Below are positions 1,608 through 41,448 of a DNA stretch of 64,000 bases, piece after piece (the first letter of the stretch is position 1; the number at the start of each line of letters is the position of its first letter). The translations under genes were made by a program, and so were the position numbers. Origin of the DNA: Candidatus Kapaibacterium sp. (GTDB lineage: Bacteria; Bacteroidota; Ignavibacteria; Kapaibacteriales; UBA2268); the NCBI GenBank assembly GCA_963664875.1, contig OY761611.1:1344001-1408000 (forward strand), given 5' to 3'. The notes below the pieces were generated by a model. That model did no database searches, was not told where the DNA came from, and saw only the letters and a program-made list of their open reading frames with translations.

Positions 1608-2819
1608 GTGAATTATAACTTTTATATAAAAGTAGAAAAGAACGCAAAAACAAAGCATCCTAATTGTATTATACAGCTATATATACGTGACAAGCGTGGA
1701 ACCATCTATTTTAATACTGGTGAAAAAATCGAAGAAAGGTACTGGGATAAAAACAAGCAAGTTGTGAAAAAGTCATATCCTGGTTCAACAGAGTTAAACT
1801 CATATCTGCGTAGCTACAAAGAAGATATAGAAAGAAAAATTCGTACAATTCAAACAGAGAAGCCAAGTATATCTCTTGCTGAACTAAAAAAGATTCTAAA
1901 GACTCCTGTCAAAGAGGCAGAAATAGTTAAAGTTAAATTCTTGGATTTGTTTCAGAAATTCATTGAAGGTAGAAGAACAACGCTAAGTCATGCAACATAT
2001 AAAAAATACAAAACACTCTTCAACCATCTGAAACAGTTTCAGAAAAAATCTAAACTCAAACTGGATGTTGAAACGATTAATGTAGATGTATTAGATCAGC
2101 TACAAAATTACTTCCTAAAACAGGGTCACAATAATAATACTACCTTCAAGCATATTCAAAATCTTCGGACATTTCTGAATTGGGCATTGGAAAGGGATTT
2201 GACTGACAATATAAAATATCAGAAATTTAATCCAATCAAGCGTGCTAATCCCGAAAGTATAGCTCTGACCAAAGAAGAATTAAAACTGATTACTGACTGT
2301 AAAGATTTAACACCAAGTCTTGAAAAAACAAAAGACCTCTTTCTTTTTATGGTTTATACAGGTCAACGGTACTCAGATGCAGTGCAATTTAACAAGGATG
2401 ACGTAAAAAATGATGTCTGGTATTTTAGGCAAAAGAAAACAACAAAGGTTATGAAAATTCCACTTAGTCGCCCAGCATTGGCAATTTTAGAAAAGTATAA
2501 TTACCAATTGCCAGTAATGAGCAACCAAAAAATGAATGCTAATCTAAAGTTTTTGGGAGAAAAGGCTGGTCTCAATGAAATCGTATCACAAGTCAAATAC
2601 AACGGTGCAAATCAAACAGTTGAAAGATACCCTAAATACAAACTACTTACAAGCCATGTTGCACGTCGAACATTTGTGTCTTTAGCAGCTTATGGCGGAA
2701 TAAGTCAACAAGTTATCAAATCATTTACGGGGCATAGCACAGATAGAATGGTATCTCAGTATTTTATTGAAAATCCGATGCAAGCCATAGATTCTATAAA
2801 TAATATATTTGAGAATTAA
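1608..2819 (+). CDS. Tyrosine recombinase/integrase (arm-binding, SAM-like and catalytic domains)
   Basis: Catalytic motifs TGQRYSD, QKKT, SHVARRTF, TGH and terminal Y; likely GTG start at 1608 (ORF track starts at 1575). Confidence 0.95.
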   Translation: MNYNFYIKVEKNAKTKHPNCIIQLYIRDKRGTIYFNTGEKIEERYWDKNKQVVKKSYPGSTELNSYLRSYKEDIERKIRTIQTEKPSISLAELKKILKTPVKEAEIVKVKFLDLFQKFIEGRRTTLSHATYKKYKTLFNHLKQFQKKSKLKLDVETINVDVLDQLQNYFLKQGHNNNTTFKHIQNLRTFLNWALERDLTDNIKYQKFNPIKRANPESIALTKEELKLITDCKDLTPSLEKTKDLFLFMVYTGQRYSDAVQFNKDDVKNDVWYFRQKKTTKVMKIPLSRPALAILEKYNYQLPVMSNQKMNANLKFLGEKAGLNEIVSQVKYNGANQTVERYPKYKLLTSHVARRTFVSLAAYGGISQQVIKSFTGHSTDRMVSQYFIENPMQAIDSINNIFEN

Positions 2820-2845
2820 TTCATTATTCCTCCCCTCTTTATACC

Positions 2846-2884
2846 ATCAGGTCAATAGCAAAAAACTACTGACCTGATTTTTTA
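2846..2884. terminator. Hairpin terminator between convergent integrase and hsdM
   Basis: ATCAGGTCA...TGACCTGAT stem followed by a T-tract. Confidence 0.7.
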
Positions 2885-4399
2885 TTTCGATTTTATCGTA
2901 TCCATGATTTCTTTGAATGATGTAAGACCTGATTCAAGATTTTGGATTATCTCCTCAGCCAATTCGTCGGGGTCAGGGAGATTGTCTAAATCTGTTAAGC
3001 TTTTGTCTTTTAACCAAAAGATATCAAGATTTGTTTTATCTCTTGCTAATATTTCTTCGTAGGTAAATTTTCGCCAACGCCCTTCGGGATTATCTTCACT
3101 CCATGTTTCTACTCGTTTGTTGCGGTTATCAGGATTGTAACATTTTACAAAGTCTTCTAAGTCTGCTGTTGTTAAAGGCTTTTTCTTCAAGGTATGATGT
3201 ACATTAGTTCGGTAGTCATATATCCATACTTCTTTTGTGTGAGCTTCTTTGCTTGCTGCTCGATTATCAAAGAAAAGAACATTTGCTTTTACGCCATGTG
3301 CATAGAATACACCTGTAGGCAATCTTAGGATTGTGTGTAAATCAGTTGTAAGCATTAATTGCTTGCGGACTTCTTCTCCTGCCCCACCTTCAAACAAAAC
3401 ATTATCAGGTAGGACTACAGCTGCTTTTCCTGTTGTCTTTAGCATTGATTTTATATGCTGAAGAAAGTTAAGCTGTTTGTTCGAAGTTGTTTCCCAAAAA
3501 TCCTGTCTGTTATAACTTAAATCTACTTTTTCAGCTTCATCATCTTCGTTTGTTACAGTATAGGAGCTTTTTTTACCGAATGGCGGATTTGCCAAAACAT
3601 AATCATAAGTTTTACTATCCGGTGCAACCAAAGCGTCATTAGGCGAAATAAACGGGTCGCTTGCTATGTCGCCTATATTATGTAGATAGAGATTCATCAG
3701 ACACAATCTACGTGTATTGGCTACAATTTCATTTCCGAAGAAGGTATCGTTCTTGAGGAATTCCTTTTCTTCTTTATCAAGCTGATTGTTTGCAATTATC
3801 CAATCATAAGCTGCAAGGAAAAATCCTCCCGTACCACATGCAGGATCTGCTATTGTTGCTTTGGGTTTAGGTTGAATGCACGCCACCATTGTTTTAATCA
3901 ATGCACGGGGAGTAAAATACTGACCTGCTCCTGATTTAGTATCTTCTGCATTTTTTTCAAGTAAGCCTTCGTAAATTTTACCTTTTATATCCGCACCCAT
4001 CAAAGTCCAATTTTCTTTGTTTATCATTGTGATAATTCGGGACAGCTTTGCGGGATCCTGTATCTTATTTTGGCTTTTGGTGAATATCTGACCTAACATT
4101 CCTTTTTCGGTGCTTAAGCTACGCAGCATCTGCGAATAAAATGATTCTAACTCCGCACCTCTTTTGCTTGAAAGTGTTTCCCAGTCGCAGATTTCTCCGT
4201 CTGTAATCTCATTGCCTTCGGTATCTTTCATCCGTGGAAATTGCAGTCCTTTAAAGTAAGGAGGTTTGTTCATTTCGTCTGCCATCTTAAGGAATAACAG
4301 ATAAGTTATTTGCTCAAGATAGTCGCCATAACTAACGCCATCGTCTCTTAGAACCCCTGCGAGATTCCATATTTTTGATATAATTGCTGAATCTGACAT
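2882..4399 (-). CDS. hsdM: Type I restriction-modification methyltransferase subunit M
   Basis: GQYFTPR, DPACGTGG (SAM-binding) and NPPF (m6A) motifs; likely start MSDSAIISKIW (ORF track 4426). Confidence 0.95.
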   Translation of the reverse strand: MSDSAIISKIWNLAGVLRDDGVSYGDYLEQITYLLFLKMADEMNKPPYFKGLQFPRMKDTEGNEITDGEICDWETLSSKRGAELESFYSQMLRSLSTEKGMLGQIFTKSQNKIQDPAKLSRIITMINKENWTLMGADIKGKIYEGLLEKNAEDTKSGAGQYFTPRALIKTMVACIQPKPKATIADPACGTGGFFLAAYDWIIANNQLDKEEKEFLKNDTFFGNEIVANTRRLCLMNLYLHNIGDIASDPFISPNDALVAPDSKTYDYVLANPPFGKKSSYTVTNEDDEAEKVDLSYNRQDFWETTSNKQLNFLQHIKSMLKTTGKAAVVLPDNVLFEGGAGEEVRKQLMLTTDLHTILRLPTGVFYAHGVKANVLFFDNRAASKEAHTKEVWIYDYRTNVHHTLKKKPLTTADLEDFVKCYNPDNRNKRVETWSEDNPEGRWRKFTYEEILARDKTNLDIFWLKDKSLTDLDNLPDPDELAEEIIQNLESGLTSFKEIMDTIKSK

Positions 4400-13305: not shown

Positions 13306-13548
13306 ATTAAGCATTGCTAAAGCATTTGTATTATGATACTTACATTTTATATTAGAATGTTTTTGACTTGCCTTACAAAAAGAACATGTTAAAAAACACA
13401 AAAGACAAGTCGTAATATAATATATCAATCTTAATATACTAATACTAAATGAAGTACACAAACGAAACATGACAGAGACTGACATATTTTATTCATTAGT
13501 ATGTATTTTTGTAACGAATTTCAATTTTTGACGTATTATTTAGATATA

Positions 13549-13674
13549 GTATCAAGAACACTTTAAGTAGTGTGCCAACCGAGCAAGGTAGCCACGGTGG
13601 CAAATGGATACGGCTTTTAAGCAAAAAAGTCCGCTACTTGATACTCCATTTGTATAATCTTGGAGAGAGAAATC
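13549..13674 (+). promoter_or_regulatory. Conserved structured 5' leader, copy A
   Basis: Homologous to the reverse complement of 33016-33132; GTATCAAG/CTTGATAC closing stem; CTCC/GGAG hairpin over the RBS. Confidence 0.65.
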
Positions 13675-13947
13675 ATGGCATCTACAAACAAAACCTTTCG
13701 AACCTTGACAATTCTGAAGATGTTCCTAAAAGGACTAAAATTGACAAAAAGAGAAATTTTGCTACAATTAGATTCTTCAGGTGATGATGTAACTCAGAGA
13801 ACTATTGAAAGAGATTTGCAAGTGCTTCAGGAGATGCAACTTGTTAATAGTTTTGAATCTTATGGTCAGGAAAAAGTTTGGGAAGCATGGGGATATGCAA
13901 AAAAAACAGTAGCAAACTCAAATTTATACATCTACGACAATATTTGA
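13675..13947 (+). CDS. Small HTH protein resembling the N-terminal domain of WYL/DeoR-type regulators (possibly truncated)
   Basis: VTQRTIERDLQVL HTH motif; GGAG RBS before ATG 13675. Confidence 0.55.
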   Translation: MASTNKTFRTLTILKMFLKGLKLTKREILLQLDSSGDDVTQRTIERDLQVLQEMQLVNSFESYGQEKVWEAWGYAKKTVANSNLYIYDNI

Positions 13948-13993
13948 CACTCATAGAAGTATATTTCAGCAATTATAATTTAAAAGAAAATCT

Positions 13994-15105
13994 ATGTTCA
14001 AAGAAATAAACAACAAAATCAAGCTAATAACCAACGACAAAAATTGGGTTGAGAGCGAAGCAATCGAACAACTTAAGCTTGTTTCTGAACTTGAAGGTGT
14101 TCAACAAGCTATTGGGCTTCCCGACATCCATTCAGGACCAGTAGGAGTTACCATAGCAACACAAAAGATTATTTATCCGCATTTAATTGGCAATGATGTG
14201 GGATGTGGAATGGCATTATTCAAACAGACCTAAAGAAATCTAAAATCAAAAGAGATAAGTGGGTCAGAAAGCTATCAGGCTTAGAGGATTCTTATGATGG
14301 AAATATAAATGCTATTATAGAAGAAGCAGGTGTTGAATCTACCGCATATGATTCTTCTATTGGTACAATTGGTGGTGGAAACCATTTTGCAGAGCTTCAA
14401 TCTATTGAAAAGGCTTTTGATGAAAACGCTCTTTTAGATTTAGGAGTTGATTCAAAGAATCTTGTATTATTAGTACATAGTGGTTCAAGAAGCCTTGGAT
14501 CTGCAATTTTTCAAGAATTTGCAGAAACAAACACTTCTACTGGGCTCAAAATAGAATCTGAAGAGGCAACTAAGTATCTTCAGCAACATGATAATGCGGT
14601 TCATTGGGCAAAACTAAGTAGAAAGCTGATTGCTGAAAGGTTTTTAGAACAGTTAGGTAGTTTTTCAAAGACGGTTTTAGATGTAGAACACAACTGTATT
14701 GCTAAAACAACTGTTGGTCATCAAGAATACTACTTACATAGAAAGGGTGCGGCTCGTTCAGACCTTGGTGCTGTTGTAATTGCAGGGTCTCGTGGTACAT
14801 ATAGCTACCTTGTGCTACCTATTGGTGGTCAGGAACAAAATCTTTTTTCACTTGCTCATGGTTCGGGTAGAAAGTGGAAACGTAAAAACGCTAAATCTAT
14901 CCTTGGTGATAAATATACAATTGATAAAATGCAACTCACCGAAATTGGAAGTGCCGTAATTTGTGAAGATAAAAATCTCTTATACGAAGAAGCACCACAG
15001 GCATACAAGAATATTGAGCATATAATTGCAGCATTGGCAGATGCAGGAATAATAAAAGTACTGGCTCAGCTCAAACCTATCATTACTTACAAAACAAGGA
15101 AATAG
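13994..15105 (+). pseudogene. rtcB: RtcB2-type RNA ligase, frameshifted near 14220
   Basis: ORF 13994-14233 (GLPDIH, GNDVGCGM) continues in 14203-15105 (GTIGGGNHFAE, HSGSR, HRKGA, HGSGR, EEAPQAYK); one base is missing at TTC AAA CAG ACC. Confidence 0.85.
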
Positions 15106-15107
15106 TT

Positions 15108-15758
15108 GTGCTCAGTGAGAAATTTAATGTATTGAGTATGCCTTCAACTCTACGTAGAATAAGAGGATTTGATGCAGTAAATAAAGTTGTAGAAAGTAAA
15201 TACAAGCAATTTAGTAGCATTATAAAAAAGCTCGATCAAGATATAAGCTTTGCTCATAGAAATACAAAAACACAAAGCGATGAAGAATGGCAGGATATTG
15301 TGCAATCAGTTAAGAAATTGAATGAAAGATTCCGCGAAATTAATGTCCTTATCAAAGATGAAGTAAAAAGGCAATATAAAGTCGCTGAGGCAAGAGTAAA
15401 TGATAATGATGATTGGGTTCGAGATTTTGAAATTGAATGGGAAATTGAATTTTATATAGGTGAGGATGATCCTGCCTATCAAGAAGATGATGATAATTAT
15501 ATAGCTCGTTTTTCCGACAGTTTGAGCTATGATTCTTCTGATAAATTGGATGATTATATTGAAGAATTCTATTATTCAAACAATTACGATCATAATGAAT
15601 TTAAAAATTTGTCAGATGACAAATCTGATTTAAACAGCTTTATACATACATTTATGCTGCATGAACTATATGATCATCAGCATCTGTCATTTGAAGAAAT
15701 CTCACGCATAAAGATTATATGGGTTGACTTCAAAACTATTTATCAATATTATAAATAA
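15108..15758 (+). CDS. Acidic hypothetical protein between rtcB and prfH
   Basis: 216-aa ORF closely packed between the two genes on the same strand. Confidence 0.7.
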   Translation: MLSEKFNVLSMPSTLRRIRGFDAVNKVVESKYKQFSSIIKKLDQDISFAHRNTKTQSDEEWQDIVQSVKKLNERFREINVLIKDEVKRQYKVAEARVNDNDDWVRDFEIEWEIEFYIGEDDPAYQEDDDNYIARFSDSLSYDSSDKLDDYIEEFYYSNNYDHNEFKNLSDDKSDLNSFIHTFMLHELYDHQHLSFEEISRIKIIWVDFKTIYQYYK

Positions 15759-15772
15759 ACGGAAATAAGAAT

Positions 15773-16396
15773 TTGAATTGGTTACAACTTACTGCAGGTA
15801 GATGTCCCGAAGAGTGTGCTTGGGTGGTAAATAAGGTTCTTAATGAAATTACTAAAGAAGCAGAGGGGTTTAAACTTAAGTTAGATATACTTGAAAAAGT
15901 CAGTGGACAGGAACGAGGCACTTTGAAATCAGCACTCCTAAGTATAGAAGGTGATAATTTAAAATCATTCTTGGAATCATGGACTGGTACTATTCTTTGG
16001 ATAGGACAAAGCCCTTACCGTAAAAACCATAAAAGAAAAAATTGGTATATCGGCGTTAATCGCTTGACAATGCCAAAGCCAACTGAATTTTCAGAGAATG
16101 ATATAAAATTTGAAACTACGCGTTCTTCAGGAGCGGGAGGACAGAATGTTAACAAGGTGGAAACAGCAGTCAGAGCAACTCATATCCCTTCGAATATATC
16201 CGTTTTAGCAAGTGAAGAACGCTCCCAACTAAGGAATAAAAGTCTTGCTCTCTCACGATTGTTTGATATGCTTAAACATATTGACGACAAGATGCAGTTG
16301 GATGCCGAAAGGGATCGTTGGTTAAATCATTGGGATTTGGAAAGGGGTAATCCAATCCGAACTTATGTTGGTGAAGGATTTAAAAGGAAGTCGTGA
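15773..16396 (+). CDS. prfH: Peptide chain release factor H
   Basis: WLQLTAGRCPEEC, SPYRKNHKRKNWY and SGAGGQNVNK (GGQ) motifs; next to rtcB. Confidence 0.93.
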   Translation: MNWLQLTAGRCPEECAWVVNKVLNEITKEAEGFKLKLDILEKVSGQERGTLKSALLSIEGDNLKSFLESWTGTILWIGQSPYRKNHKRKNWYIGVNRLTMPKPTEFSENDIKFETTRSSGAGGQNVNKVETAVRATHIPSNISVLASEERSQLRNKSLALSRLFDMLKHIDDKMQLDAERDRWLNHWDLERGNPIRTYVGEGFKRKS

Positions 16397-16477
16397 GGTT
16401 TTAAACTTCTAATATTTGGTTCGATTGGTGTAAGATTGCTGCCCCATGGTGACCAATTAGAATATTATTGATATTTC

Positions 16478-16890
16478 TGTAAACTACACCACCTATTTCG
16501 GTAAAAGAACTCCACTTTTCACCAAACTAAACATGGCACAAAAAATGATACTCCTCTAATCGATAATAATGATTACTGATATAGGGTATTGTGTATGGCT
16601 AACAAGAGTATTTCATTGATAGATATCAGACAAATTCTAAGAATGCACCACGAGCATCATTCCATGCGTAAAATAGAAAACTATCTTGGAGTTGCACGCA
16701 AAACCGTGTCAAAGTATATTATCTTGGCTCAATCAGCAACAATTACTTACCCTGATATTCAACACCTTTCTGATGAAGAGCTGTTAGCAATAATCTTAGA
16801 ACAGAAAAACTTGAAATGAGCAATTTTAATATCTTGAGTCACAGTTTGAAGACTTTAAAAAGAAGCCCAAAAAGACAGGTCTAAGCAAGT
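16478..16890 (+). pseudogene. IS21-family remnant (left end and truncated istA)
   Basis: ORF 16589-16819 MANKSISLIDIRQILRM...SMRKIENYLGVARKTVSKY resembles the IstA N-terminus; broken continuation YLESQFEDFKKKPKKTGLSK. Confidence 0.65.
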
Positions 16891-17018
16891 TTTTTTCAGG
16901 TGTAAAAATATAGAAGCAAATCAATCATATGAAAATAAATAAGAGATTGGTATTATTTACAGCAGATGACTGAGAAAAATCAAAATCCTTTACAATACAA
17001 AGATTGACCTGATTTAGC

Positions 17019-17053
17019 TAAAAAAAAGGGCTTACTCCCGTAGGATATAAGCC
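17019..17053 (-). terminator. Rho-independent terminator
   Basis: GGGCTTA/TAAGCCC stem with an A-tract on the left (U-tract on the minus strand), just after the large T9SS gene. Confidence 0.65.
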
Positions 17054-17080
17054 CGACTTATTGAGGTATGGAAATGCGAA

Positions 17081-20000
17081 TTAGTGAATTACAACAAAAG
17101 GAATTACTTTTGTTTCGCTTCCTGCCTGTATCACTAAATAATACTGACCTGAAATGAAACTGCTCGTATCAAACCCTTTGTAATGTACCCCTGATTTTTG
17201 ATTCCCTTCATTTTTATAGTATAGTACTGTTCCGTATTGATTCCTTATCTCAAACTCAACTTTTGCCGACTGAAGCAATGTATATTCTACTGAAAATTTG
17301 TCATCTGCAGGGTGTGGCATAGTTGAGACGCTCGACAATATAGGAGATGCAAAACTCATAGTTCTCATCTGCATACAACTACTTGTTAGCTCACTTACTT
17401 CAACAGGTTGGAAGTTAGCATCGTAATAGTGAATTTCCACTTTTAGTGTACTGTCTATAGGTTTCACCAAATCTGTTAAATGGTATGAGGTGCTGAAATC
17501 AAAAGGTGATGCAGATTTCGGGTCTCTAAACTCATAGTGCAATACAACACTCGGAGCCTCCATGTCAGAAACAATGACATAATAAATGTCAATCGGATCG
17601 ACAGGTGTTTGATTTTGTTCTACATCTATGCCATATTCACAGAAATTTCCTACAGGAATTGCCATAGCTGAAGGTTCAAAAATGTCATTATCCTGGAGTA
17701 GCTCCCAATGTCTTTCAAATTCATAAGAACAGAGAACATTACCGTCTTTGTCATAGAACACAATTCGATATTTTGAATCAAGTGCTCTTTGGAAATCAGC
17801 AGGATATGCAGTTGAAGATGATTCATTGATATAAACATCATTTATCTTAAGTAGGTTGCCTGACATATCATACTCTTCGATTTCGATTTTATCGAGCATA
17901 TATCCAATTTCATTCAATTCGATAGTTTTGAACCATAGAGCATTAGTGTGAGTACGTGGATAAGCTACCTGAAGTTCATCTATATGAGTATATAAATATA
18001 GTTCTTGTGCAGGATGTCTTGGATCAATAGGAAGACCATCTTTGATAGTGTATTTGTCACATAAATTACATGAATCAACTAATTCTTTAACGCATGCAAT
18101 ACTGTCATTTTCGTCTTTAAGGTAGAATTCGAATTTGACTTCTTCACCACAATAACAAAATTCAGCATAAATGCTACCATCACCGATTATATCTTCAGTT
18201 ATATCTTCTGTTGTTCCATCTTCTTTGACTGCTCTGATGCCGTATGAAGTATAACATGTAGAGTCAGGATTTACTTCCGCCATCACTTTCCAAGCACAAC
18301 CGCCTGTAGAATCACAATCAATATCAGATGATTCTAATGTAACAGGACTTAGGAATGAACAACAGTCATCAAAAGATCCGCTATCGATGAAATTTTCACA
18401 TTGTATTGTGTTATTAGCATCCGCAAAGCCTGCATATAACTGAAAATAATTAGTTCGACCTTCGTAAACGCACGTTGTAATGACATATTCTTCACCTGCG
18501 TGTAAATCGCCTTCGAATGAACAACGTCTTGCATCTTCATTCCATTGGAAACTCCATCTGTCATCCGGCACCCAATAACTCATATGTTTGTGAGTTAATT
18601 CATTTTCAAAAAGTAGTTGTAATGCAGTATAATCACAGTCACCTGTATTTTTTATTATTAAATGATAGCAATTATCTTGATATTGTCGCACTTCAACTTC
18701 AATATTCTCATTAATGCCATTGCATGTAACACAAGTTGTATCTTCCATTTCAGGTGTCTGTGCTAAATATTTTGCTTCAACTCCTATCATTTTACCTTGA
18801 CCGGGCAGCAAGTTTGCAGTAAATGCCTCGTTTTCTTTGATAACAGTGTCAATCATGTGATATAAATCAGGCTGTCTCCAAAATTTTGAATTCAGTTCGG
18901 AATTGTCGTAACCCAATTCCTTAATCTCATAATATCTACCGCTAAAGTAGTTAGGATTATTATCTGCTTTAAAGTTAATTGGTACTGATAATTGCCTACA
19001 ACCTAAGCGTTTCCACCAAAGGTCTTTCCAAAAGTCCGAAGAGTAGTATTGGTCGTTTTTATAAAGTTCACCACCATTCTGTACAAATTCATCAAATTCA
19101 GCAGCTGAAATGAAAATCATAGAATTTAGTGGAACTTCGCTATTCAAATATAACAGAGGATCAGTTCTTCTATTCTGAATACCAAGCACAAACTTATTGT
19201 TGTCAATATCGTTTTCGCTATATCTCATGAGAGTCAAATCAAAGAATGAAGAATCATAACTTTCTTTGACTACTGCATAATTACCTGTTGTTGGTTCCCA
19301 TATCTTTTTTGTAAATAGTTTTGTTGTATCAAACTCTATATAGTTATTCCATACATCAGTTGCAGAATAACGCTCGTCCCAATTTTGCCATTGCCTATAT
19401 CCCTTAGATAGAGAAGCGAAAGGACGTAAATCCATTATTTCGTCGCTCATTAAATCAAGGAAGGTATGTAATTTAACTAATTCAGATCTGATGCTCCGAG
19501 TTCCAATATAGACTCTATCTCTATCTATTCCTGCATATTGTGCAGTTGTATCTACATAAGAAAAACGAGTACTGTCAGTTTCTAAATTCCAAGTATCATA
19601 CTCTGAATTGATAAAATCGTCACCAACTTCTCTTGAAAGAAGAGGATATGAGGTAAACTTTGATGTATCGCCTATTCCAAGACGTAATTCCCTTTTTTGA
19701 CGGTCAACATCTGTTTGATGGTCTCCATCGTAAATAAACCCTTTACACCCTCTAATCATAGAGGAATGCCATTGCAAACGGAATTCTTCAGCTGTCTTGG
19801 CTCTGTATGTGTTCCAATTAAATATTGAATCAATTGTTGTCCCATTTTGCCATGGTGTTATTTCTGCACTATAAAATAAAGAGTAAATCCACCAATTCTT
19901 ATCAGAGTAAATTAGATTTTTTACGTTAGTATTTGGGTTATAATAATATCCGTAGAGTCTTGCCTCCCAAATAGGTTGTATATTGTTTTCAACACTAAAT

Positions 20001-21613
20001 AATCTGTTAAAATAGTCATAATCGTTATTGATATTTATAGTGGGATCTAAATATGTTTCGTAATCAGAATTTAAAGAATCAGGGAAATTAATGCTTGTTT
20101 CTCTACCTTTGAATCCATTTTTTATATCCATCGCACGAGCAGGAGAAAAGTTTCCTTCTTGCCAACCATGCCGAATATATGGAGGTGCAATTGCGGCATC
20201 CCAATTATTGAAATGAAGCCCAACCCACCTCTCAGGACATAATGTATAGTATTCATAAAGTTTAGGATGTTTATAATTGTCTCTTGTAATTACCATATTG
20301 TTTGTCAGCTTGTTTGCATATCTTAATGGTCCCCACCAATAATACTTATCAGATTCTATATCCTGAAAATAAAATCTAAAAAACTGTGCATCTTGAAAAC
20401 CATTTGTTTCACTGTAAACATCATCAAGAGAAGTCTCAACGATTCGTTTTATATCGTATAAGTATGTTTTTTTTCGCTTTTCGTCACTAATTAACAATGT
20501 ATCTTGAGTGGGATCAGGTGTCAACACACAACTGGTTAAAGTGTTTCTATTCATGCTGTCAGCCACACCTGTAAGTAAGTAGTGGGCTCGCATTGTCTCA
20601 ATTCTCACCCAATCAATCGCTACATCTAAATTCCCAAAATAATTTACTTCGATGTCGATAGAGTCGATTTCAAATGGATCCTCTCCAAAATCATGATTTT
20701 TTTCTATCTCAGAAACTGTAAAAAAACATGAGGAAAATGTTATCGCTGAATTTTCTGAAGTAACAGGTATAATTCTATTTGTCACTAACATTGAGTCCGA
20801 TAAAGACTCATACATCTTTTGGTATTTCCCTCTATTTTGATGATAATTTGCGAAATATATTGAATCCTCATCTTGCTGTGGAATACTATCGAATACCATA
20901 AGTCCTGAAACGTTTTGTCCCCAATACCTGATTTTTAAACTGAGTACAGCATCATCATTTATGACATTATCTATTTCAGGATTTAATCTTCTGACATTAG
21001 CAGTTAGATACCATTTGCGTCCAAAATACATATCTGTCTGACCTGAAACATCTTTCGCAGCTCTAGAAACAAAATGAGGCTGAGGTTGTATATCTTTCAG
21101 AACTGTATTGCCTCCATAAGAAGCTACAGAGTCTTTGTATAATATCAACCTTGAATAGTTTACATCTGAGGAATTAGATAAAATTGTACCTCTTCTATAC
21201 TTGAAGCCAAATACAGGGTTCGATGAATCTTCAGGTCTCAGTATGTCTCCAAAATTATTATCATTCAGAGGTAATGTTGGTTCGTACTGCATAAAAGGAG
21301 CCCAGTAATATGCGGGAATATAACCTGTCGCATTCAAATCTGAAGGTTGATATAGTAGCAGCAAAGTGTCATTTGTCTGAAATTCTCCTTCGTGCACGTT
21401 TCCAGTACCACGTATATTATTACGAAGCGAATCATCCATTAAAGGAGTACCTGACCACTGAAAGCCGTGTACTACTGCATTTTGCTGATAATTGTTAGGA
21501 TTAAATACTTGTGATGACTGATTTCCAAATTCAAAACTCATTGGAGAGGGCTCGCTATCTTGTGCTTTTAGCAAAAACGGGGCTAATAGCAGCATCAAGA
21601 ACAATCTTTTCAT
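17081..21613 (-). CDS. Large secreted protein with T9SS-type C-terminal sorting domain
   Basis: Signal peptide MKRLFLMLLLAPFLLKA; Cys-rich region; C-terminal PHPA...SGQYYLVI...FVVIH; ORF track start 21658. Confidence 0.8.
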   Translation of the reverse strand: MKRLFLMLLLAPFLLKAQDSEPSPMSFEFGNQSSQVFNPNNYQQNAVVHGFQWSGTPLMDDSLRNNIRGTGNVHEGEFQTNDTLLLLYQPSDLNATGYIPAYYWAPFMQYEPTLPLNDNNFGDILRPEDSSNPVFGFKYRRGTILSNSSDVNYSRLILYKDSVASYGGNTVLKDIQPQPHFVSRAAKDVSGQTDMYFGRKWYLTANVRRLNPEIDNVINDDAVLSLKIRYWGQNVSGLMVFDSIPQQDEDSIYFANYHQNRGKYQKMYESLSDSMLVTNRIIPVTSENSAITFSSCFFTVSEIEKNHDFGEDPFEIDSIDIEVNYFGNLDVAIDWVRIETMRAHYLLTGVADSMNRNTLTSCVLTPDPTQDTLLISDEKRKKTYLYDIKRIVETSLDDVYSETNGFQDAQFFRFYFQDIESDKYYWWGPLRYANKLTNNMVITRDNYKHPKLYEYYTLCPERWVGLHFNNWDAAIAPPYIRHGWQEGNFSPARAMDIKNGFKGRETSINFPDSLNSDYETYLDPTININNDYDYFNRLFSVENNIQPIWEARLYGYYYNPNTNVKNLIYSDKNWWIYSLFYSAEITPWQNGTTIDSIFNWNTYRAKTAEEFRLQWHSSMIRGCKGFIYDGDHQTDVDRQKRELRLGIGDTSKFTSYPLLSREVGDDFINSEYDTWNLETDSTRFSYVDTTAQYAGIDRDRVYIGTRSIRSELVKLHTFLDLMSDEIMDLRPFASLSKGYRQWQNWDERYSATDVWNNYIEFDTTKLFTKKIWEPTTGNYAVVKESYDSSFFDLTLMRYSENDIDNNKFVLGIQNRRTDPLLYLNSEVPLNSMIFISAAEFDEFVQNGGELYKNDQYYSSDFWKDLWWKRLGCRQLSVPINFKADNNPNYFSGRYYEIKELGYDNSELNSKFWRQPDLYHMIDTVIKENEAFTANLLPGQGKMIGVEAKYLAQTPEMEDTTCVTCNGINENIEVEVRQYQDNCYHLIIKNTGDCDYTALQLLFENELTHKHMSYWVPDDRWSFQWNEDARRCSFEGDLHAGEEYVITTCVYEGRTNYFQLYAGFADANNTIQCENFIDSGSFDDCCSFLSPVTLESSDIDCDSTGGCAWKVMAEVNPDSTCYTSYGIRAVKEDGTTEDITEDIIGDGSIYAEFCYCGEEVKFEFYLKDENDSIACVKELVDSCNLCDKYTIKDGLPIDPRHPAQELYLYTHIDELQVAYPRTHTNALWFKTIELNEIGYMLDKIEIEEYDMSGNLLKINDVYINESSSTAYPADFQRALDSKYRIVFYDKDGNVLCSYEFERHWELLQDNDIFEPSAMAIPVGNFCEYGIDVEQNQTPVDPIDIYYVIVSDMEAPSVVLHYEFRDPKSASPFDFSTSYHLTDLVKPIDSTLKVEIHYYDANFQPVEVSELTSSCMQMRTMSFASPILSSVSTMPHPADDKFSVEYTLLQSAKVEFEIRNQYGTVLYYKNEGNQKSGVHYKGFDTSSFISGQYYLVIQAGSETKVIPFVVIH

Positions 21614-21614
21614 T

Positions 21615-22946
21615 CTAATTCTCCTTGACGACTTTATAATCCGCAACAGTAGCACCACAAGCAGCTCTAACGATATAGATTCCTACACTAATACGACTTA
21701 AATCAACAGTCATATCTTCACCGTTGTAATTCCATTCTGCCTGAGATGTTACATCTGCACCATTGGAATCAAAAATTGAAAAACTTGGTTCACTTGTTTC
21801 GCAGATTAAAGGTATTGTTACTATGCTTGTAGTTGGATTGGGATAGATAATGTCGTTTTTATTTTGTTCCTCAATAGATGTATCGAAGTCGTAATAGCCA
21901 GATGAAATACTCATGTTTCCTAAGCCGATAATTAAATTTGAACTTTTAGAAATCCTTGACTCTATTCCCCAGCCATAACCAGAAGGATGTTGTGAAAAAT
22001 ATACAATAGAGCCCTTTTCTAAATCTAAGATATTTGTAATAGATGAAAGTGTCGATAAAATATATTTTGAATCCTCATACAGGGAAATCTTACCAGGTGC
22101 TACAATATTACTTTCTATATTAAATCTTTCATCAACAATTTTCTTCTCTGATACATTGTAAACCGATAATCCTTGATGATTTTTATCGCTTTCAAAATGT
22201 TTGAACCTGCCCGAAATATAAATATTATCCGAGTTCACTCTTGAAAATTTCAAATCGCCAGGGTCGCCAAATTCGTTAGAAGTGTGAGGTGCCATATAGT
22301 GGTCAACTATCTGCTCTCTTGTTTCTAAATCCCAAACTAAGAGTTTTGATTTGCCTTCGCTGATGGAAGCGAGGTATTTACCATCATACGAAACAGCAAG
22401 ATTTATCAACCACAAATCAAAATGACTTTCATCTGTAAGCTCACCCACATATTCTAATGTTTCTGAGTTGTAAATAACTATCTTAGATTTACTTTCTTCT
22501 TTATCAGGCTGATTTATTATGTATTCTATTCGTAAGTACAAAAGTGGTCTAATCGGATCTATTTGCATTTGACCGTAAAACAAATGATAATCACCATCTT
22601 CAGTTGGCATTTCTATGCTTTGTACCACTTCTAATGTTTCAATATCACGTATTTCGAGGATTGTATTTTTCCTTGTAATCATTTTTGTGCTATCAGCAGA
22701 AAATTCTATATCTGTTAAATTTTCTCCTCTACTCAAGACTACTTGTCCTGTAAGAACTTCCCGTATTTCGAGAACATTGTATCGTGCAATAACGCAATAA
22801 TCATTATCAGGCATAAATTCAATATCAGAAACATACCCTTCATTCAATGCCTCTGACCATAAAAACTTCATTTCACCTGCGGTGGAAGTAGCAATAGTCA
22901 AAACTAACATACTGCATAAAATCAAAATCAAACATAAGGATTTCAT
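21615..22946 (-). CDS. Secreted WD40-like beta-propeller protein with T9SS C-terminal domain
   Basis: Signal peptide, repeated DIEFxxD/LxVWDL motifs, C-terminal IYPNPT...GIYIVR...KVVKE. Confidence 0.85.
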   Translation of the reverse strand: MKSLCLILILCSMLVLTIATSTAGEMKFLWSEALNEGYVSDIEFMPDNDYCVIARYNVLEIREVLTGQVVLSRGENLTDIEFSADSTKMITRKNTILEIRDIETLEVVQSIEMPTEDGDYHLFYGQMQIDPIRPLLYLRIEYIINQPDKEESKSKIVIYNSETLEYVGELTDESHFDLWLINLAVSYDGKYLASISEGKSKLLVWDLETREQIVDHYMAPHTSNEFGDPGDLKFSRVNSDNIYISGRFKHFESDKNHQGLSVYNVSEKKIVDERFNIESNIVAPGKISLYEDSKYILSTLSSITNILDLEKGSIVYFSQHPSGYGWGIESRISKSSNLIIGLGNMSISSGYYDFDTSIEEQNKNDIIYPNPTTSIVTIPLICETSEPSFSIFDSNGADVTSQAEWNYNGEDMTVDLSRISVGIYIVRAACGATVADYKVVKEN

Positions 22947-23685
22947 AGAGTGGACTCCAAATAAAAGAATTACAATACTTATATAATCAATGTAATAATT
23001 ATATTGATATTATAAAAATAAAATTTTAGCTAAGCTGATAATTAACTTGAAAAAATTGTATAGGTATGTTTTTTAAAACAGGTTGGCTACATAAATTTTC
23101 AATTTTTGGTGCTTCTTGGAAATATTATTGGAAGGAAAAGTTAATTTAGAGTCGTTTTTTCTTAAACTTAAATCTTTAATGCTAATATTTCGCCATAAAA
23201 TCTATTATAAGAGTTTTTCATGTTTAGCAATAAACTTTTACTGCTCTTCAATAAAAACCTAACAGAATAGATTTATGGTGCTTATTTACTATAATTTGTT
23301 TTGTTATATCTGCTTCTTTATCTCATAACATTCTATCTTAAATACTTCATATTTTATACCACTCATTCTTCTTTTGGCTTTATTTCAATCAAGAGTTTGT
23401 AGTTCATGGTAAAAAGCTAACTTGTAACAATCTTTTTCATCTTTGAGATTTGCAGACAAACAAGAAAATTGCTTTAAGTATTAGCAATATAAATCATTTA
23501 CAATATTGTATACAAAACTTTTTCCTCGCTGATTAGTTTATATAAATATACAATATTATCAGTGATGAAGCATATTAAGCTTATAAAGAATAAAACAAAA
23601 AAAATCTCTCTCTTCTACACATTTGGGGGGGGGGGAGCTTAATATAACGAAGATTGATGTACAAATGGAATCGTAAAATTTATAA

Positions 23686-24759
23686 TTACTTCAACACATC
23701 AAATTTCGAGACGTTGTCGGTAACAATGCTTCTAAATTCAGTATTAAAAATATTTCCAAATGCTCTATCGCTTACATTCAGTTTTTTGGCTATCAATCTG
23801 ATATAATTCAATTCACGTTCAGCAATTTCTCCATCAACTTTCGCTAAATCCAACAAAGTATATAGAATGTTGTGCTTTTCTAACGGATGGTTATTCAACA
23901 AAGCAAAATCAATTTGTATTAGCTTACAATCCCACAGAGATTCACCAAATGTACGTTTATCTACTTTAGGCAAGTCAGATTCAACAATTAGTTTTTCTAT
24001 TACTTTAATTTCTTGCCTTTGAAGTTTTCCATCAATTTTTATCAAGTTGATATACAAAGCAATTTTGTTGTACTCTAACTTAAGATGTTCTTCAAGTCGA
24101 TTATTGTCTTCTTCTTTTGAGGTTCTTACGATAAAGATTTGTTTAGCACGGTTCCCAATCATAAGTGTTGAGATTCCGTCAAAGGATGCTCCTACAATGC
24201 TTGCTAAGAGAGGAATACTATAAGTAACTTCTTCTGCTCCTTTGACTGATAAACGCTGTACTATTGACTTCAGAGCAGTTTCATTGATTATCTTGATTGC
24301 TTCCTCACTTAAACCTTTCACTAACAATTCGCCTGCTGTGTGGGATGCAAATTTGGCACCTACATTTTTAAGTAAATCTGCCGTTTTACCAACTGTCCAA
24401 CTTAAAAGAACAAATGTCTTTACTTTTTTATCTTTCAAATCAAACCCTGCTAAATGTGCAATTGCAGCTACCATTCGCATCTGTAGGAATGTAACACCAA
24501 CTAAAGATGCAGGAATCATAAAAGACATAGTTAAAAGACCGCCTAAGCCTGTTATAAATCCTGAAATAGAAGCTTTTGAGGTTTCTTTCCTGATGATTTT
24601 GTTTGCCATAGAAAGTAAACTATCATTTGGATTATAAACCGAATCAGCAAGCTCTATTGCAGAATATGTGCCAGGCAGTCCTTCAAAAGATTTTTCATAA
24701 GCCCAATCTATGAGCTTTTCAATTTTCTTTGAACCATGCTTAGATTTTAACATAAACAT
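23686..24759 (-). CDS. EcsC-family domain fused to a C-terminal TerB-like domain
   Basis: GFITGLGGL...QMRMVAAIAHLAGFDL (EcsC); IKIDGKLQRQE and AKVDGEIAERELNYIRLIAKKLNVS (TerB-like). Confidence 0.75.
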   Translation of the reverse strand: MFMLKSKHGSKKIEKLIDWAYEKSFEGLPGTYSAIELADSVYNPNDSLLSMANKIIRKETSKASISGFITGLGGLLTMSFMIPASLVGVTFLQMRMVAAIAHLAGFDLKDKKVKTFVLLSWTVGKTADLLKNVGAKFASHTAGELLVKGLSEEAIKIINETALKSIVQRLSVKGAEEVTYSIPLLASIVGASFDGISTLMIGNRAKQIFIVRTSKEEDNNRLEEHLKLEYNKIALYINLIKIDGKLQRQEIKVIEKLIVESDLPKVDKRTFGESLWDCKLIQIDFALLNNHPLEKHNILYTLLDLAKVDGEIAERELNYIRLIAKKLNVSDRAFGNIFNTEFRSIVTDNVSKFDVLK

Positions 24760-24790
24760 TTAATATGTAATGTATTGAGAATTATCCAAT

Positions 24791-25276
24791 TTAAAATGCT
24801 TCATAGCTTGTGAGCTCTTCAACTCTTTTCATAGCAGAAACCAAATCATCTCCATGTTTGCCGTCTTTGACTTCTTGAAGAACAAGCTTCAAAACTTCGA
24901 TAAATTCTTTTGCTTCTGCTTCTACAAATTTCTCTTCAAATTCTACAAGATCTTCTTTGGCTTTTTGCATTGCCTCTTCAAACAAGTGCTCATACTCACT
25001 TGTGCTAAATACAACTTCTTTTTGTAGCTCTTCTTCGGCTTCTTTTCTACCTTCTTCTAAAGCATCTTCTACAATTTTTGCAAGTAGAACTTTCCGTTCT
25101 TCATCATTACTGGTAAAGAACTTATAGTCATCTTCTTTATCTTTAATTTGAGTTTCTATAAATTTAGCTAACTTTTCGGCAGTATCAAGATCTTCTGCCC
25201 AATCAACAAAACTAAACCCTACCCAAACAATTTTTTTTCTGATTGAGTTTATAAAATCTGTGATAAAATTTGACAT
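24791..25276 (-). CDS. Acidic helical hypothetical protein
   Basis: 161-aa ORF with AAGGA RBS, part of a co-oriented cluster. Confidence 0.75.
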   Translation of the reverse strand: MSNFITDFINSIRKKIVWVGFSFVDWAEDLDTAEKLAKFIETQIKDKEDDYKFFTSNDEERKVLLAKIVEDALEEGRKEAEEELQKEVVFSTSEYEHLFEEAMQKAKEDLVEFEEKFVEAEAKEFIEVLKLVLQEVKDGKHGDDLVSAMKRVEELTSYEAF

Positions 25277-25326
25277 AGTGTTATTTCCTTTTTTGTTTTT
25301 ATTTTAATATTATTAAATCATATTTC

Positions 25327-26409
25327 TTACATCAATGCAGGTCCAATCAAAACATCAAAAAAAGTTAGGATCATCCATATCCAAAAACTTGCTTGAGTCT
25401 TTTGTAGAATTTTATTCCTTTTCCAAATGTAAACAGGAATCCAAAATATTGACCCAAATTGTTCAGTATCATGACCTAAATTTTTAAGTTTAGAAGAATC
25501 AATCCCGATAAATATCAGATTAAACATGATATAAACGACACCCCCCCAATTGCTTAAAAAGTGATATAAATCAGCATAAGCTTGGACGTTGGTTTGTATA
25601 TATTGCTCCCAACTGAAACTCATAATTAGAAGAAGTACAAGACTACTAATTAATGGAGAAAATGCAACCCACCAAATTGAACCATTCGGGGCATTTTCTC
25701 CTAACACAGGAGGTGGAGTGTGAATGTATTTCTTCAGCTCTGTATCTTCAACAGCAACCCAGTTATGTCTGCCCTCTTTATAAACAGCATCTCCGTAACT
25801 AATATGTTCTTTTTCAATTGCTAATCTCATTTCAAATTCTGTAAAAGGACCTTCTCTGTCCCCATTTCTGCTATAGAACCAAACTTTTGGTAAATCTTGA
25901 TTCAATCTCTGTGCATTTTGATTTACAATTATCTTAGCTTCCTGCCAATTCTCCTGATTGTCTGAACTTACTTCTGTATCAGATGAAATAGTATTATCTA
26001 AAGTAAGTTTTAATATTTTCTCAAAGTCATATGCACCATAGACTTGCCCATTTTTTCTGTAGAACCAAGTCGTTCTATTAGTCTCTTTAGTTGGAGCTGA
26101 TTGATTTGATTCTGTGTCTATTTTACTGTCATCCTCAGTTGCTACCGACTTTTGTTTATCAATAACAGTAGCATTGGATTTATGTATAAATACTTCTCCT
26201 TCCACAGCTTTACGATTTGGCAAATTATTGGTGTCACTTCCTATTTTATTTCCACAATTCGAGCAAAACTTTGAATCTTGATGATTTTCGGCTCTGCAAT
26301 TTGAACAAATTTTCAAGTGGTTAACTTTCTCTCCACAATTATTACAGAAATTGGCATTTTCTGCAATCGGTAAATTACAAGCAGAACAATTTCGCATATT
26401 ATACTCCAT
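25327..26409 (-). CDS. Membrane protein with double zinc ribbon and two GYF_2 (DUF4339)-like domains
   Basis: Two CxxC...FCxxCG units; WFYRKNGQVYG and WFYSRNGDREGPF motifs; C-terminal TM helices. Confidence 0.8.
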   Translation of the reverse strand: MEYNMRNCSACNLPIAENANFCNNCGEKVNHLKICSNCRAENHQDSKFCSNCGNKIGSDTNNLPNRKAVEGEVFIHKSNATVIDKQKSVATEDDSKIDTESNQSAPTKETNRTTWFYRKNGQVYGAYDFEKILKLTLDNTISSDTEVSSDNQENWQEAKIIVNQNAQRLNQDLPKVWFYSRNGDREGPFTEFEMRLAIEKEHISYGDAVYKEGRHNWVAVEDTELKKYIHTPPPVLGENAPNGSIWWVAFSPLISSLVLLLIMSFSWEQYIQTNVQAYADLYHFLSNWGGVVYIMFNLIFIGIDSSKLKNLGHDTEQFGSIFWIPVYIWKRNKILQKTQASFWIWMILTFFDVLIGPALM

Positions 26410-26437
26410 TTATTGAACGATTCCTATGGTTTGTTGG

Positions 26438-27286
26438 TTAATCTTTAATCAACCTAATAGAATAAAAGTTCTCCTTGTTACTGCTTTCTCGAAGAAGTTC
26501 ATCTGAGGAGTATTCAACTTTAAGAGATCTTGAAATTGCATTAGTATCTGAAAGTTCAGTAGCTGTCCACCAAGTACTGACAACACATAAACCTGAGAAT
26601 CCGTCTTCATATTTGCCACTTGGAATTGCTAAAAAACCACTTTCACCGATTTCTTCCATCTTTTCAGTATAGTTCCATAAACTTTCAAACCCAATGAGTT
26701 TTATACCAATAGATTTATTATTCCTATCGAATGACTCAAGTTGATGTTCTGACAGTCCAAGCAATGATTCTAATGTTTGCCAATCTTCATCTGTAGGAAT
26801 ACGATATCCAACTGGTGCGATTCCACGATCATCAGAGACTGCATACCAATTGTAAAGTTTCCCAAATTTTGCTCCTCGACTTTCATCAAAGTTATAATAA
26901 CACCATGCTCCAATTTTGTTTCGAGAAGCATTTTCCAATTCATAACTGTTTTTACATTGGGGGATTAAGTCTCCATTCTTATAAGATATCACATCTAAAT
27001 TGCGAGTCATCCATGTTTGATTAAAAATGCGGATTTCTTTTGCCGAAACCCAAGTTTGGATAGTTCCCCAATTAAATACAATTCCCATTGATAGAATTAA
27101 TAATGCCCCCGGAAGAAAAGCAAAGAATACAACTCTTTTGGGAAAGATTATTTTTGACTCATTTGAGCCTTTTGTATTTTGTAAAACAACCGACTCCTCA
27201 CCATCTAAAGCTATTACCTTAATTCCGCATTTGTTACAAAAGTTTGCTCCTTTCTGTATTTCTTTACCACATTCTTTACAAAACAT
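26438..27286 (-). CDS. Zinc ribbon + TM + Fibrobacter succinogenes major paralogous domain protein
   Basis: MFCKECG...FCNKCG; QTWMTRNLDV, GKLYNWYAV, GYRIPTDEDW, WWTAT and YSIRLIKD motifs. Confidence 0.85.
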   Translation of the reverse strand: MFCKECGKEIQKGANFCNKCGIKVIALDGEESVVLQNTKGSNESKIIFPKRVVFFAFLPGALLILSMGIVFNWGTIQTWVSAKEIRIFNQTWMTRNLDVISYKNGDLIPQCKNSYELENASRNKIGAWCYYNFDESRGAKFGKLYNWYAVSDDRGIAPVGYRIPTDEDWQTLESLLGLSEHQLESFDRNNKSIGIKLIGFESLWNYTEKMEEIGESGFLAIPSGKYEDGFSGLCVVSTWWTATELSDTNAISRSLKVEYSSDELLRESSNKENFYSIRLIKD

Positions 27287-27327
27287 AATGTATATCCTTT
27301 CAATAATGAATCAATATCAAATTGAGC

Positions 27328-28998
27328 TTATTGAGCCTGTTCTTCTCTTAAATTATAGAAATACCATACTGCTCCGTATATCATATAGGAATCTCCAACA
27401 TGAGTTACGTGCAAGTTTGTTTTCTTACCTTTGTAATTAAAATTTAGATTAAATGTGTTAGAGTCAAGATTTGAGTCAAGTTCTTTGAACATAACCTCTA
27501 AAACAAGCTTCCTGAATGATTCAGGCAACTCTATGTCTTTCCAAGCATAAAAGCGATTTTTATATTGCAGTCCCTTTTTATCTACTCGGACAAGCAGTTT
27601 TTCTTTTTGTTTAGGAGTGAGTTTTACTTTTTCTGCTTTCTTATTGTCTTTGAAATACTTATCAAAAACTTTTCTCAGGATATTCTTCTTTTCTTTTGGT
27701 AAAAAAGGTGAGATTATCAAATCCAATATCCAAACTACCAAAGAAGTTGCAAGATATAATATCCCAAATATCACCACTATAATGTATGGCATTGCTACCA
27801 AGAATAGAAACCAAGCGACGTAAAATGCTAATAGCATCGCAATGAAAATTAAGATATTCATCAATATATTTGAATCACCATTAAGTATATTTCTAACAAA
27901 TAACACGGAAGCAGCTATTATTGGTGGAACAAGCATAAAAACATATATATATCTATCCGAATTGCTGTAGAAAGATAGAAATTCTACCGGCTCTTCTTGA
28001 AATCCAAATACCTCTTCTATAATTTTTTCTCTGAGCTGCTTATCAGTCTTGTGAACTATTAACCTATCCTCCTTGGTTTCACTATCATTTATTTTGTACT
28101 TTTCTTCAGATATAGATTTTTTCAAATCTTGAAAATCAGCATCCATTTTTTTTGGTTGTGTTTCTATTTCTGTCTGTGTCTCTTCTATCTCTTCTTTCCT
28201 TGCGAAGTTGACTCTATCAGAATCAGAATTCTCAGTAGTGTCAGATTTCATATATAAGTACATCTCTTTCTTTTCTTCATCACTTAGTTGATTTAATATA
28301 CCGTGATGATCCGAGTCATTTTCATCATAATATTTTTTAAACCATGCCTTATATTTAGAAAACTTATATCTTTTTCCTACAAATTTTGCAATAAGAAACG
28401 GAAGAAATAATTGCATAAGCCCTGCCTGACCACTTAAGGCAGTCGGCTCGTCATTTGCGAAATCTATTCCCAGCACTTCAGAGTTAAGGTATGAAATAGC
28501 TATCAAACTAATGAAGTAAACTCCGACTTGAATAAATATTTTTGACCAACTTAGATTTTCTTTGAACTCTAAAAATCTTTTGTAAAGCGGAGCTGAGTAA
28601 TTTTTCGATATCACCTGTTTATAAGTTATATGGTAATCTTTAAACTGATTAAATGTCAAGAAGTCATCATAACTTAGTCTGTCAATATTCGGTAAAGAAC
28701 GGTTGTTATAATTACTTTTTAGTTTTATCCAAAGTTGATGTTCCCAATACATCAATTGGGCTCTGTTCTTAATTTTCCCGGTTTCAATTCGCATCTCAAT
28801 TTTTTCAATTTCGATTTTTAGCTTTTTGTAGCTTTCTTCGCCAAGTGCTGTCTTCCAATTTTCGCACTCTACTTTAAATCTTCCAAGCAATTCAGGTTTA
28901 TCAGGATCTCCGAACAATTCAAGTAAAAACATAAGAGCCATATAGAATCTAACTAAAATCCATTCTGAAGTTGTTTCTTGGTATATTGTGTTACTCAT
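27328..28998 (-). CDS. Multi-pass membrane hypothetical protein
   Basis: Long ORF with two groups of hydrophobic helices; likely start MSNTIYQE (ORF track 29031). Confidence 0.7.
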   Translation of the reverse strand: MSNTIYQETTSEWILVRFYMALMFLLELFGDPDKPELLGRFKVECENWKTALGEESYKKLKIEIEKIEMRIETGKIKNRAQLMYWEHQLWIKLKSNYNNRSLPNIDRLSYDDFLTFNQFKDYHITYKQVISKNYSAPLYKRFLEFKENLSWSKIFIQVGVYFISLIAISYLNSEVLGIDFANDEPTALSGQAGLMQLFLPFLIAKFVGKRYKFSKYKAWFKKYYDENDSDHHGILNQLSDEEKKEMYLYMKSDTTENSDSDRVNFARKEEIEETQTEIETQPKKMDADFQDLKKSISEEKYKINDSETKEDRLIVHKTDKQLREKIIEEVFGFQEEPVEFLSFYSNSDRYIYVFMLVPPIIAASVLFVRNILNGDSNILMNILIFIAMLLAFYVAWFLFLVAMPYIIVVIFGILYLATSLVVWILDLIISPFLPKEKKNILRKVFDKYFKDNKKAEKVKLTPKQKEKLLVRVDKKGLQYKNRFYAWKDIELPESFRKLVLEVMFKELDSNLDSNTFNLNFNYKGKKTNLHVTHVGDSYMIYGAVWYFYNLREEQAQ

Positions 28999-29131
28999 AC
29001 ATTTCCTTAATAGTATTTCCTTGATATTCAAGGATTGTTATCTATAAAGTGTAAAATATCATCATTTTTTCAGGCAGGTGTATAAAGAATTGCAACCTGC
29101 CTGAATAAAGTTCTAAGATTTTCTTCCTAAT

Positions 29132-29428: not shown

Positions 29429-29443
29429 TTGAATTACTCCTCG

Positions 29444-29641: not shown

Positions 29642-29698
29642 GTTTGTTTTCCTTAAGTTAGTTGAACTATAGTTGTATTTATAATAAATAATAAATAT

Positions 29699-41439: not shown

Positions 41440-41448
41440 GGTGAAAAA

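Follow-up and report, generated by a model that had tools for sequence, protein, structure and literature searches.

SAM-I/IV riboswitch leaders in front of an rtcB-prfH cassette and an uncharacterised gene pair in a Kapaibacterium genome

The SAM-I/IV riboswitches (RF01725) correspond to the 'variant SAM-I/SAM-IV' RNAs of Weinberg et al. 2010 (PMC2864571), and the features given for the class there and in PMC6890682 include a P2 helix without an internal loop and a P4 hairpin located 3' of P1. Translational SAM-I switches, such as that of the Xanthomonas met operon, repress translation of downstream genes through the SAM-bound aptamer; as described in PMC7270179, they belong to RF00162 and control methionine synthesis. 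In the RtcB2-PrfH ribosome rescue/repair module, as presented in PMC9304027, PMC9223846 and PMC13166195, prfH and a prfH-coupled rtcB form one operon. The literature searched contained no paper joining prfH, rtcB and a riboswitch, and among the papers listed nothing linked a SAM riboswitch to SAM lyase, phage or phage defence. The locus analysed here shares with the Xanthomonas-type switches the proposed repression of translation by a SAM-bound aptamer, but the RNA is RF01725 and the downstream genes are others. It likewise has prfH and a prfH-coupled rtcB in one operon, but differs from the RtcB2-PrfH module, as those sources describe it, in its SAM riboswitch, leading winged-helix gene and extra 216-aa gene. 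The RNA class is known, so that what is new are the putative targets of the switch, although the supplementary file of the 2010 paper (PMC2864571) may already list gene contexts.

The two leaders lie in a 64-kb stretch of a Candidatus Kapaibacterium sp. genome (hereafter, the window), copy A at 13549-13674 (+) and copy B at 33016-33132 (-), where a first-pass annotation had placed them. That annotation could assign them to no known family and proposed a cmscan search against Rfam, noting that a match to a known family would remove their novelty. Such a search of the whole window (Rfam 15) matched both to RF01725, copy A with 68.1 bits (E-value 3.6e-09) and copy B with 61.7 bits (9.1e-08), against a gathering score of 41.1 bits, and both cover model positions 1-99 of 99. 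The copies are thus members of a known and ordinary RNA class, SAM-I/IV, and the proposal of a new RNA family was rejected. Other elements of the annotation stand: these are structured cis-regulatory leaders with a riboswitch-like layout, and they precede unrelated operons. The features are collected in Table 1.

Table 1. Features of the two leaders, their operons and the segment that they bound (positions in the window)
Feature	Position	Strand	Details
Segment of 19.7 kb bounded by the two convergent riboswitch leaders	13509-33184		Defined by blastn against the host genome
Copy A aptamer, SAM-I/IV	13544-13638	+	RF01725 match
Copy A P1	13549-13553 and 13607-13611	+	GUAUC paired with GAUAC
Copy A P2 hairpin	13559-13572	+
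Copy A P3	13574-13601	+
Copy A P4	13612-13622	+
Copy A alternative-helix strand (putative antisequestor)	13637-13645	+	CUUGAUAC(U); pairs with 13548-13556; 9-bp helix in the unconstrained minimum-free-energy fold
Copy A putative sequestor hairpin	13644-13665	+	CUCCA 13644-13648 with UGGAG 13661-13665; forms when P1 is enforced
90-aa winged-helix-like protein, first gene after copy A	13675-13947	+
rtcB, release-factor-H-coupled type	13994-15105	+	Frames 13994-14233 and 14203-15105; NF007153 and TIGR03073 match both
216-aa ORF without family, between rtcB and prfH	15108-15758	+	Conserved in the paralogous copy
prfH (peptide chain release factor H)	15773-16396	+	TIGR03072, 245.4 bits (cut-off 166.65)
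155-aa protein, second gene after copy B	31946-32413	-	N-terminal ~85 aa form a conserved domain (AYWI.P...H)
200-aa protein of an uncharacterised family, first gene after copy B	32413-33015	-
Copy B expression platform	33022-33049	-	Alternative strand CUUGGUAC 33042-33049
Copy B putative sequestor hairpin	33039-33044 and 33022-33027	-	UACUCC with GGAGUA; AUG 33015-33013
Copy B aptamer, SAM-I/IV	33046-33137	-	RF01725 match
Copy B P1	33128-33132 and 33074-33078	-

The resemblance to the SAM-I/IV class goes beyond the full covariance-model match and includes the class features described in PMC2864571 and PMC6890682 as well as the core of the SAM-I clan. According to the cmscan structure lines, both copies have a simple P2 hairpin, free of internal loops and kink-turns, and a P4 hairpin (GGCU...AGC) immediately 3' of P1. 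The segments AUCAAGA (P1/J1-2), CCAACC and GGUG (P3) and GAU (3' strand of P1) equal the family consensus letter for letter in both, and UAUCAAGA, CCAACCGA, ACGGU and GAU are unchanged across 12 related leaders. Using the SAM-pocket residues of the SAM-I clan given in PMC6890682 and our own mapping of motifs to that numbering, these invariant motifs appear to fall in the segments lining the pocket. The P3-loop to 3'-tail pseudoknot (PK-2) of the class description is plausible in copy A, where sequence inspection finds four possible pairs (GGUA with UACU, one of them G-U), but not evident in copy B, which has no clear complement on inspection; the pseudoknot lies outside the scoring of the Rfam model. 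From P1 to the AUG, the copies measure 129 and 120 nt and share 100 identical positions over 134 columns of a global alignment. Their differences are as the annotation had it, namely a variable P2 loop and a change from CUUGAUAC to CUUGGUAC, which turns an A-U into a G-U pair in a long-range stem.

That stem had been taken for the closing stem of the RNA. It is indeed a long-range stem whose 3' strand adjoins the hairpin in the RBS region, but it is not the closing helix of the aptamer: it competes with P1. The helix is formed by GUAUCAAG and CUUG(A/G)UAC, and since in copy A its 5' strand (13548-13556) consists of the 5' strand of P1 together with the ligand-binding J1/2, it is incompatible with the aptamer fold. 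The CUCC/GGAG hairpin reported before the AUG is present in both leaders, and the UGGAG arm of copy A ends 9 nt 5' of the AUG at 13675. Folding without constraints yields the long-range helix and an open start region (-35.9 kcal/mol for copy A and -32.9 for copy B), and folding with P1 enforced yields UACUCC(A) paired with (U)GGAG(UA) 8-9 nt before the AUG (-32.9 and -29.8 kcal/mol). The predicted gap of about 3 kcal/mol is of a size that ligand binding can overcome. Two mutually exclusive folds, with the RBS hairpin accompanying P1, correspond to the layout of a thermodynamic translational OFF switch, which would be off at high and on at low SAM.

The same expression platform was found in relatives from four genera. 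Among the matches listed of a core-pattern search described below, 28 of 102 leaders contain, further downstream, a segment able to pair over at least 8 bp with the 5' strand of P1 and J1/2, whereas mononucleotide shuffles reach 3.55 on average and 11 at most; core conservation within this set exists by construction, because the pattern fixes the core. The variable P1 base next to AUCAAGA has a Watson-Crick partner in the alternative strand in 36 of 46 leaders (C-G in 29, U-A in 7), and the remaining 10 are not complementary at this position. In the 12 close leaders, variation is so low that most pairs are uninformative about the platform. As Bacteroidota are generally considered to rely little on Shine-Dalgarno pairing, the GGAG motif may matter only as an arm of the hairpin.

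Each element is thus a SAM-I/IV riboswitch that most probably acts as a translational OFF switch. Family membership, the conserved core, the two exclusive folds and the gene contexts are what the analysis shows; that SAM is the ligand, that its binding turns expression off and that it does so at translation, we infer. Binding of SAM would close P1 (GUAUC with GAUAC) and arrange the AUCAAGA, CCAACC and GGUG core around the ligand, leaving UACUCC(A) free to pair with (U)GGAG(UA); the resulting hairpin would bury the ribosome-loading region and keep the first gene untranslated. When SAM is scarce, CUUG(A/G)UAC would instead pair with GUAUCAAG, destroying the aptamer and drawing the anti-RBS strand off the RBS, so that translation could start. 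Low SAM would in this way switch on accessory cassettes, producing the winged-helix protein, the RtcB-PrfH ribosome-repair pair and the 216-aa protein from copy A, and the uncharacterised 200-aa and 155-aa pair from copy B.

It is also conceivable that the switch acts mainly on transcription or RNA stability, for instance through Rho-dependent termination when the first ORF is left untranslated. Each leader heads an operon of two to four genes, and coupling between translation of a first ORF and read-through is common in bacteria, which would suit this explanation. No intrinsic-terminator-like site (a hairpin followed by a U-tract) was found in the copy A leader between 13400 and 13720, however, and the conserved hairpin covers the region 8-9 nt 5' of the AUG. 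We therefore regard a principal action on transcription or stability as unlikely; as a secondary effect, it would be compatible with the translational OFF switch.

Copy A precedes the gene order HTH-rtcB-X-prfH, as annotated. The 90-aa winged-helix-like protein has only sub-cut-off Pfam matches (FUR, Arg_repressor and HTH_12) and a weak WYL match in PADLOC (E 8.5e-4), and this WYL-like match is the single exception to the lack of PADLOC defence-model matches among the riboswitch-gated proteins. The larger rtcB piece scores 335.2 bits with TIGR03073 (cut-off 271.8). Compared with an intact 370-aa paralogue, the gene carries a 1-nt deletion (one C of CC, near 14221) that divides it into frames of 79 and 300 aa, and this may reflect decay of the gene or a fault in the assembly. 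The 216-aa ORF matches nothing in Pfam or PADLOC. Downstream of prfH, both cassette copies contain a short ORF (16589-16819), which we take to resemble the N-terminal helix-turn-helix of IS21-type transposases.

The two genes that follow copy B, annotated as uncharacterised, remain so: neither the 200-aa nor the 155-aa protein has a Pfam, NCBIfam or PADLOC match, a tblastn search of 50,697 phage records detected neither of them, and the protein atlas offered no usable match. A 10-sequence alignment profile retrieved no relative from metagenome contigs. HMMER, run against 1.84 billion representatives, places 81 relatives in the 200-aa family at E<=1e-3, all of similar length. The AF2 model of the 200-aa protein (pLDDT 91.4) has no Foldseek match in PDB or BFVD at E<=0.001; its non-significant matches are lambda-repressor-like domains and T7-like phage proteins labelled SAM hydrolase. 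For the 155-aa protein (pLDDT 79.8), no PDB match was found at E<=0.001, and weak matches to Stay-Green, splicing-endonuclease or Cas4-like folds are taken as leads only. Within the sampled genomes of the order (Flavobacteriales sample), the 200-aa family occurs at nine loci in 6 of 201 genomes. At eight of these loci, including those in two genomes of another genus, RF01725 lies upstream, and the most distant locus is the one without it. A 28%-identical relative in a Kapaibacterium contig (L021) stands behind a pattern-level match and was not counted, the RNA being below the Rfam gathering score. Paralogues of the 155-aa protein are located behind a third type of leader, and in another genus RF01725 is directly followed by the gene for a homologue. 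In a further contig of another genus (L203), a calcineurin-like phosphoesterase gene (2237-3148, +) follows an RF01725-led 200-aa member and replaces the 155-aa protein, so that the 200-aa gene keeps its riboswitch while the partner varies.

The host genome (3.83 Mb in a single contig, 36% G+C, marked as Bacteroidota by its type IX secretion sorting domains) contains five RF01725 matches of 53-69.3 bits, two of them before wHTH-rtcB-X-prfH and three before a 200-aa-led cassette. Two of the 200-aa-led leaders are identical and precede the 200-aa and 155-aa pair; the third is diverged and precedes a 67%-identical 200-aa paralogue and two longer 155-aa paralogues. Unlike typical members of the class, these leaders are associated with rtcB-prfH and uncharacterised genes in defence or mobile islands and not with Met/SAM metabolism; as none of the five has a Met/SAM gene downstream, the argument for the ligand that the regulon normally supplies does not apply here. 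The 3.4-kb metK locus of the host has no Rfam match at E<=1. SAM-I (RF00162), SAM-II and SAM-II long-loop riboswitches, considered as candidates for serving the methionine regulon, had no match in the genome among the best 150 candidates of each, with the RF00521 control matching nowhere, a result that does not by itself establish their absence.

A survey by sequence pattern, with the core and one P3 base pair fixed, detected at least 118 stretches in contigs representing one genome per species, overwhelmingly from Bacteroidota among the matches listed, and 14 stretches in IMG/VR viral contigs. Among the matches listed, 106 of 121 passed a simple P1 check, the failures including chance matches in coding DNA, and crude ORF calling yielded a first ORF of at least 70 aa for 97 of these 106. 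The first ORFs encode MetK in 7 of these 97 cases, FGase-like proteins in 5, NADAR in 3 and AAA_5 or MoxR in 3; NACHT, radical SAM, DUF6847 and DUF4846 are among the single cases, and most by far lack a Pfam family. A similar mixture is seen in the 72 second and third genes among the matches listed (MetK 2, NADAR 2, FGase 2, cREC_REC, Gp49, AAA_15 and others). With regard to a 'defence' neighbourhood, these counts are uncontrolled. Searching the loci L007-L145 by tblastn with the host Hsd proteins detected HsdM at two loci, HsdS at none, HsdR at two loci, both from close relatives, and the second HsdR at two loci; given how seldom Hsd genes were detected, adjacency to type I restriction-modification (R-M) was rejected as a general rule.

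The same results bear on whether these aptamers, while keeping the SAM-I/IV fold, have drifted away from SAM in what they sense, for example to SAH, a product of SAM breakdown or a conflict-specific signal. Such a drift would explain their position before non-metabolic genes, in line with the lack of Met/SAM genes behind all five host copies and the low share of MetK among the first ORFs of pattern-matched leaders, and variant riboswitches with altered specificity are known in other classes. Nevertheless, no core segment departs from the family consensus, metK is preceded by leaders with this same core in other Bacteroidota, and the metK leaders show no systematic core difference from the rest, although the pattern itself fixes the core. 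A change of ligand is therefore very unlikely, and SAM remains the preferred ligand.

RF01725 is present in 6 of 61 related genomes, the host included, and one relative carries all three leader types within 35 kb of a single contig. In a relative of the same genus (L007), an orphan A-type SAM-I/IV aptamer (1501-1595, -; 64.5 bits) adjoins hsdR, its platform and cassette having been lost; a 20-nt direct repeat, present twice, and a gene resembling class V aminotransferases lie approximately 320 nt downstream of it. True prfH was identified in 21 of 401 sampled Bacteroidota genomes. RF01725 is absent from the approximately 6 kb upstream of prfH at all 20 remaining Bacteroidota loci, so the link to prfH is lineage-specific, and SAM-I/IV as a general feature of prfH operons was rejected. 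An independent echo comes from a Prevotellaceae MAG (L027), in which RF01725 (52 bits), a 56-aa ORF, metK, rtcB and prfH lie on one strand; a gap of about 300 nt precedes rtcB, and a transcript shared with metK is a candidate only. Three Prevotellaceae contigs (L017, L027 and L029) contain similar SAM-I/IV leaders. Behind each comes a small hydrophobic ORF (about 56 aa), and the cargo beyond it is metK-rtcB-prfH in L027 and a 240-aa protein without family in L017 and L029; the Prevotellaceae leader looks like a portable module. Separately, Flavo-1 RNA (RF01705, function unknown) was seen in intergenic positions upstream of rtcB-prfH at 3 of the 20 other Bacteroidota prfH loci, each time on the strand opposite to the operon (L183:3925-4002, -; L195:3776-3878, -; L194:3105-3184, +), in L183 about 0.6 kb 5' of rtcB.

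The 19.7-kb segment between the leaders has an inverted duplicate at genome positions 2110373-2131791, with 95-99% identity in three main blocks (blastn), and the two segment copies adjoin type I R-M systems at opposite ends. In the window, copy A and the hsdR gene of a type I R-M system point away from each other, with DUF6946, RhuM/Fic and DUF6161 genes interrupting that system, and beyond copy B are DUF6371 and AAA_25 genes followed by a type I-B CRISPR-Cas locus, with type I-B-like Cas6, Cas8b/TM1802 and Cas7 genes at 37865-44494. The second segment copy is flanked on one side by a type I R-M system with Abi_2, an M78/HTH gene and a PIN/DUF4411 gene, and on the other by tyrosine integrase, REase-ARP, T5orf172 and helicase genes. 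Further along the window are tandem 1.2-kb repeats (45234-46427 and 46965-48158), probably an insertion sequence, with at least five more copies genome-wide at 99.6-100% identity, and a tmRNA gene (51759-52123, -; RF00023, 199.2 bits). That the leaders are DNA-level inverted repeats ending a mobile or recombining segment, their RNA-like features being incidental, is extremely unlikely: they do face each other, the duplicated stretch does end some 40-50 nt outside the aptamers and an integrase does adjoin its second copy, yet both match the covariance model in full and above the gathering score, each has a fixed distance to the start codon with an RBS-covering hairpin, and the same leaders occur singly before ORFs at other places and in other genera.

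Returning to the SAM-I/IV riboswitches as translational OFF switches, a bolder reading is that they serve as a SAM-depletion alarm, in which a fall in SAM would derepress otherwise silent accessory conflict or back-up modules. Possible causes of the fall are starvation, the action of phage SAM lyases, which disarm R-M and BREX, and other attacks that drain SAM. Among the back-up modules, RtcB-PrfH would mend ribosomes cleaved by ribotoxins, and the others would be the uncharacterised 200-aa-led cassettes. SAM-dependent type I R-M systems adjoin the 19.7-kb cassette segment in both of its copies. The alarm would explain why the SAM-I/IV leaders found in Bacteroidota mostly precede diverse small genes that are uncharacterised or of conflict type, and why an extra metK accompanies rtcB-prfH behind the switch at the Prevotellaceae locus. 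We nonetheless consider it doubtful and put it forward as speculation.

A SAM sensor thus appears to gate a ribosome-repair operon and uncharacterised families in defence or mobile islands, as a non-canonical regulon in a genome where no SAM riboswitch was found 5' of metK. Its recurrence across the surveyed Bacteroidota suggests a general, so far unexplained, use of the SAM-I/IV riboswitch. If SAM does control these genes, the SAM level would act as a signal beyond methionine homeostasis, one that could report stress, starvation or attack, and the riboswitch would make the 200-aa and 155-aa families, as well as the regulation of RtcB-PrfH, accessible to experiment.
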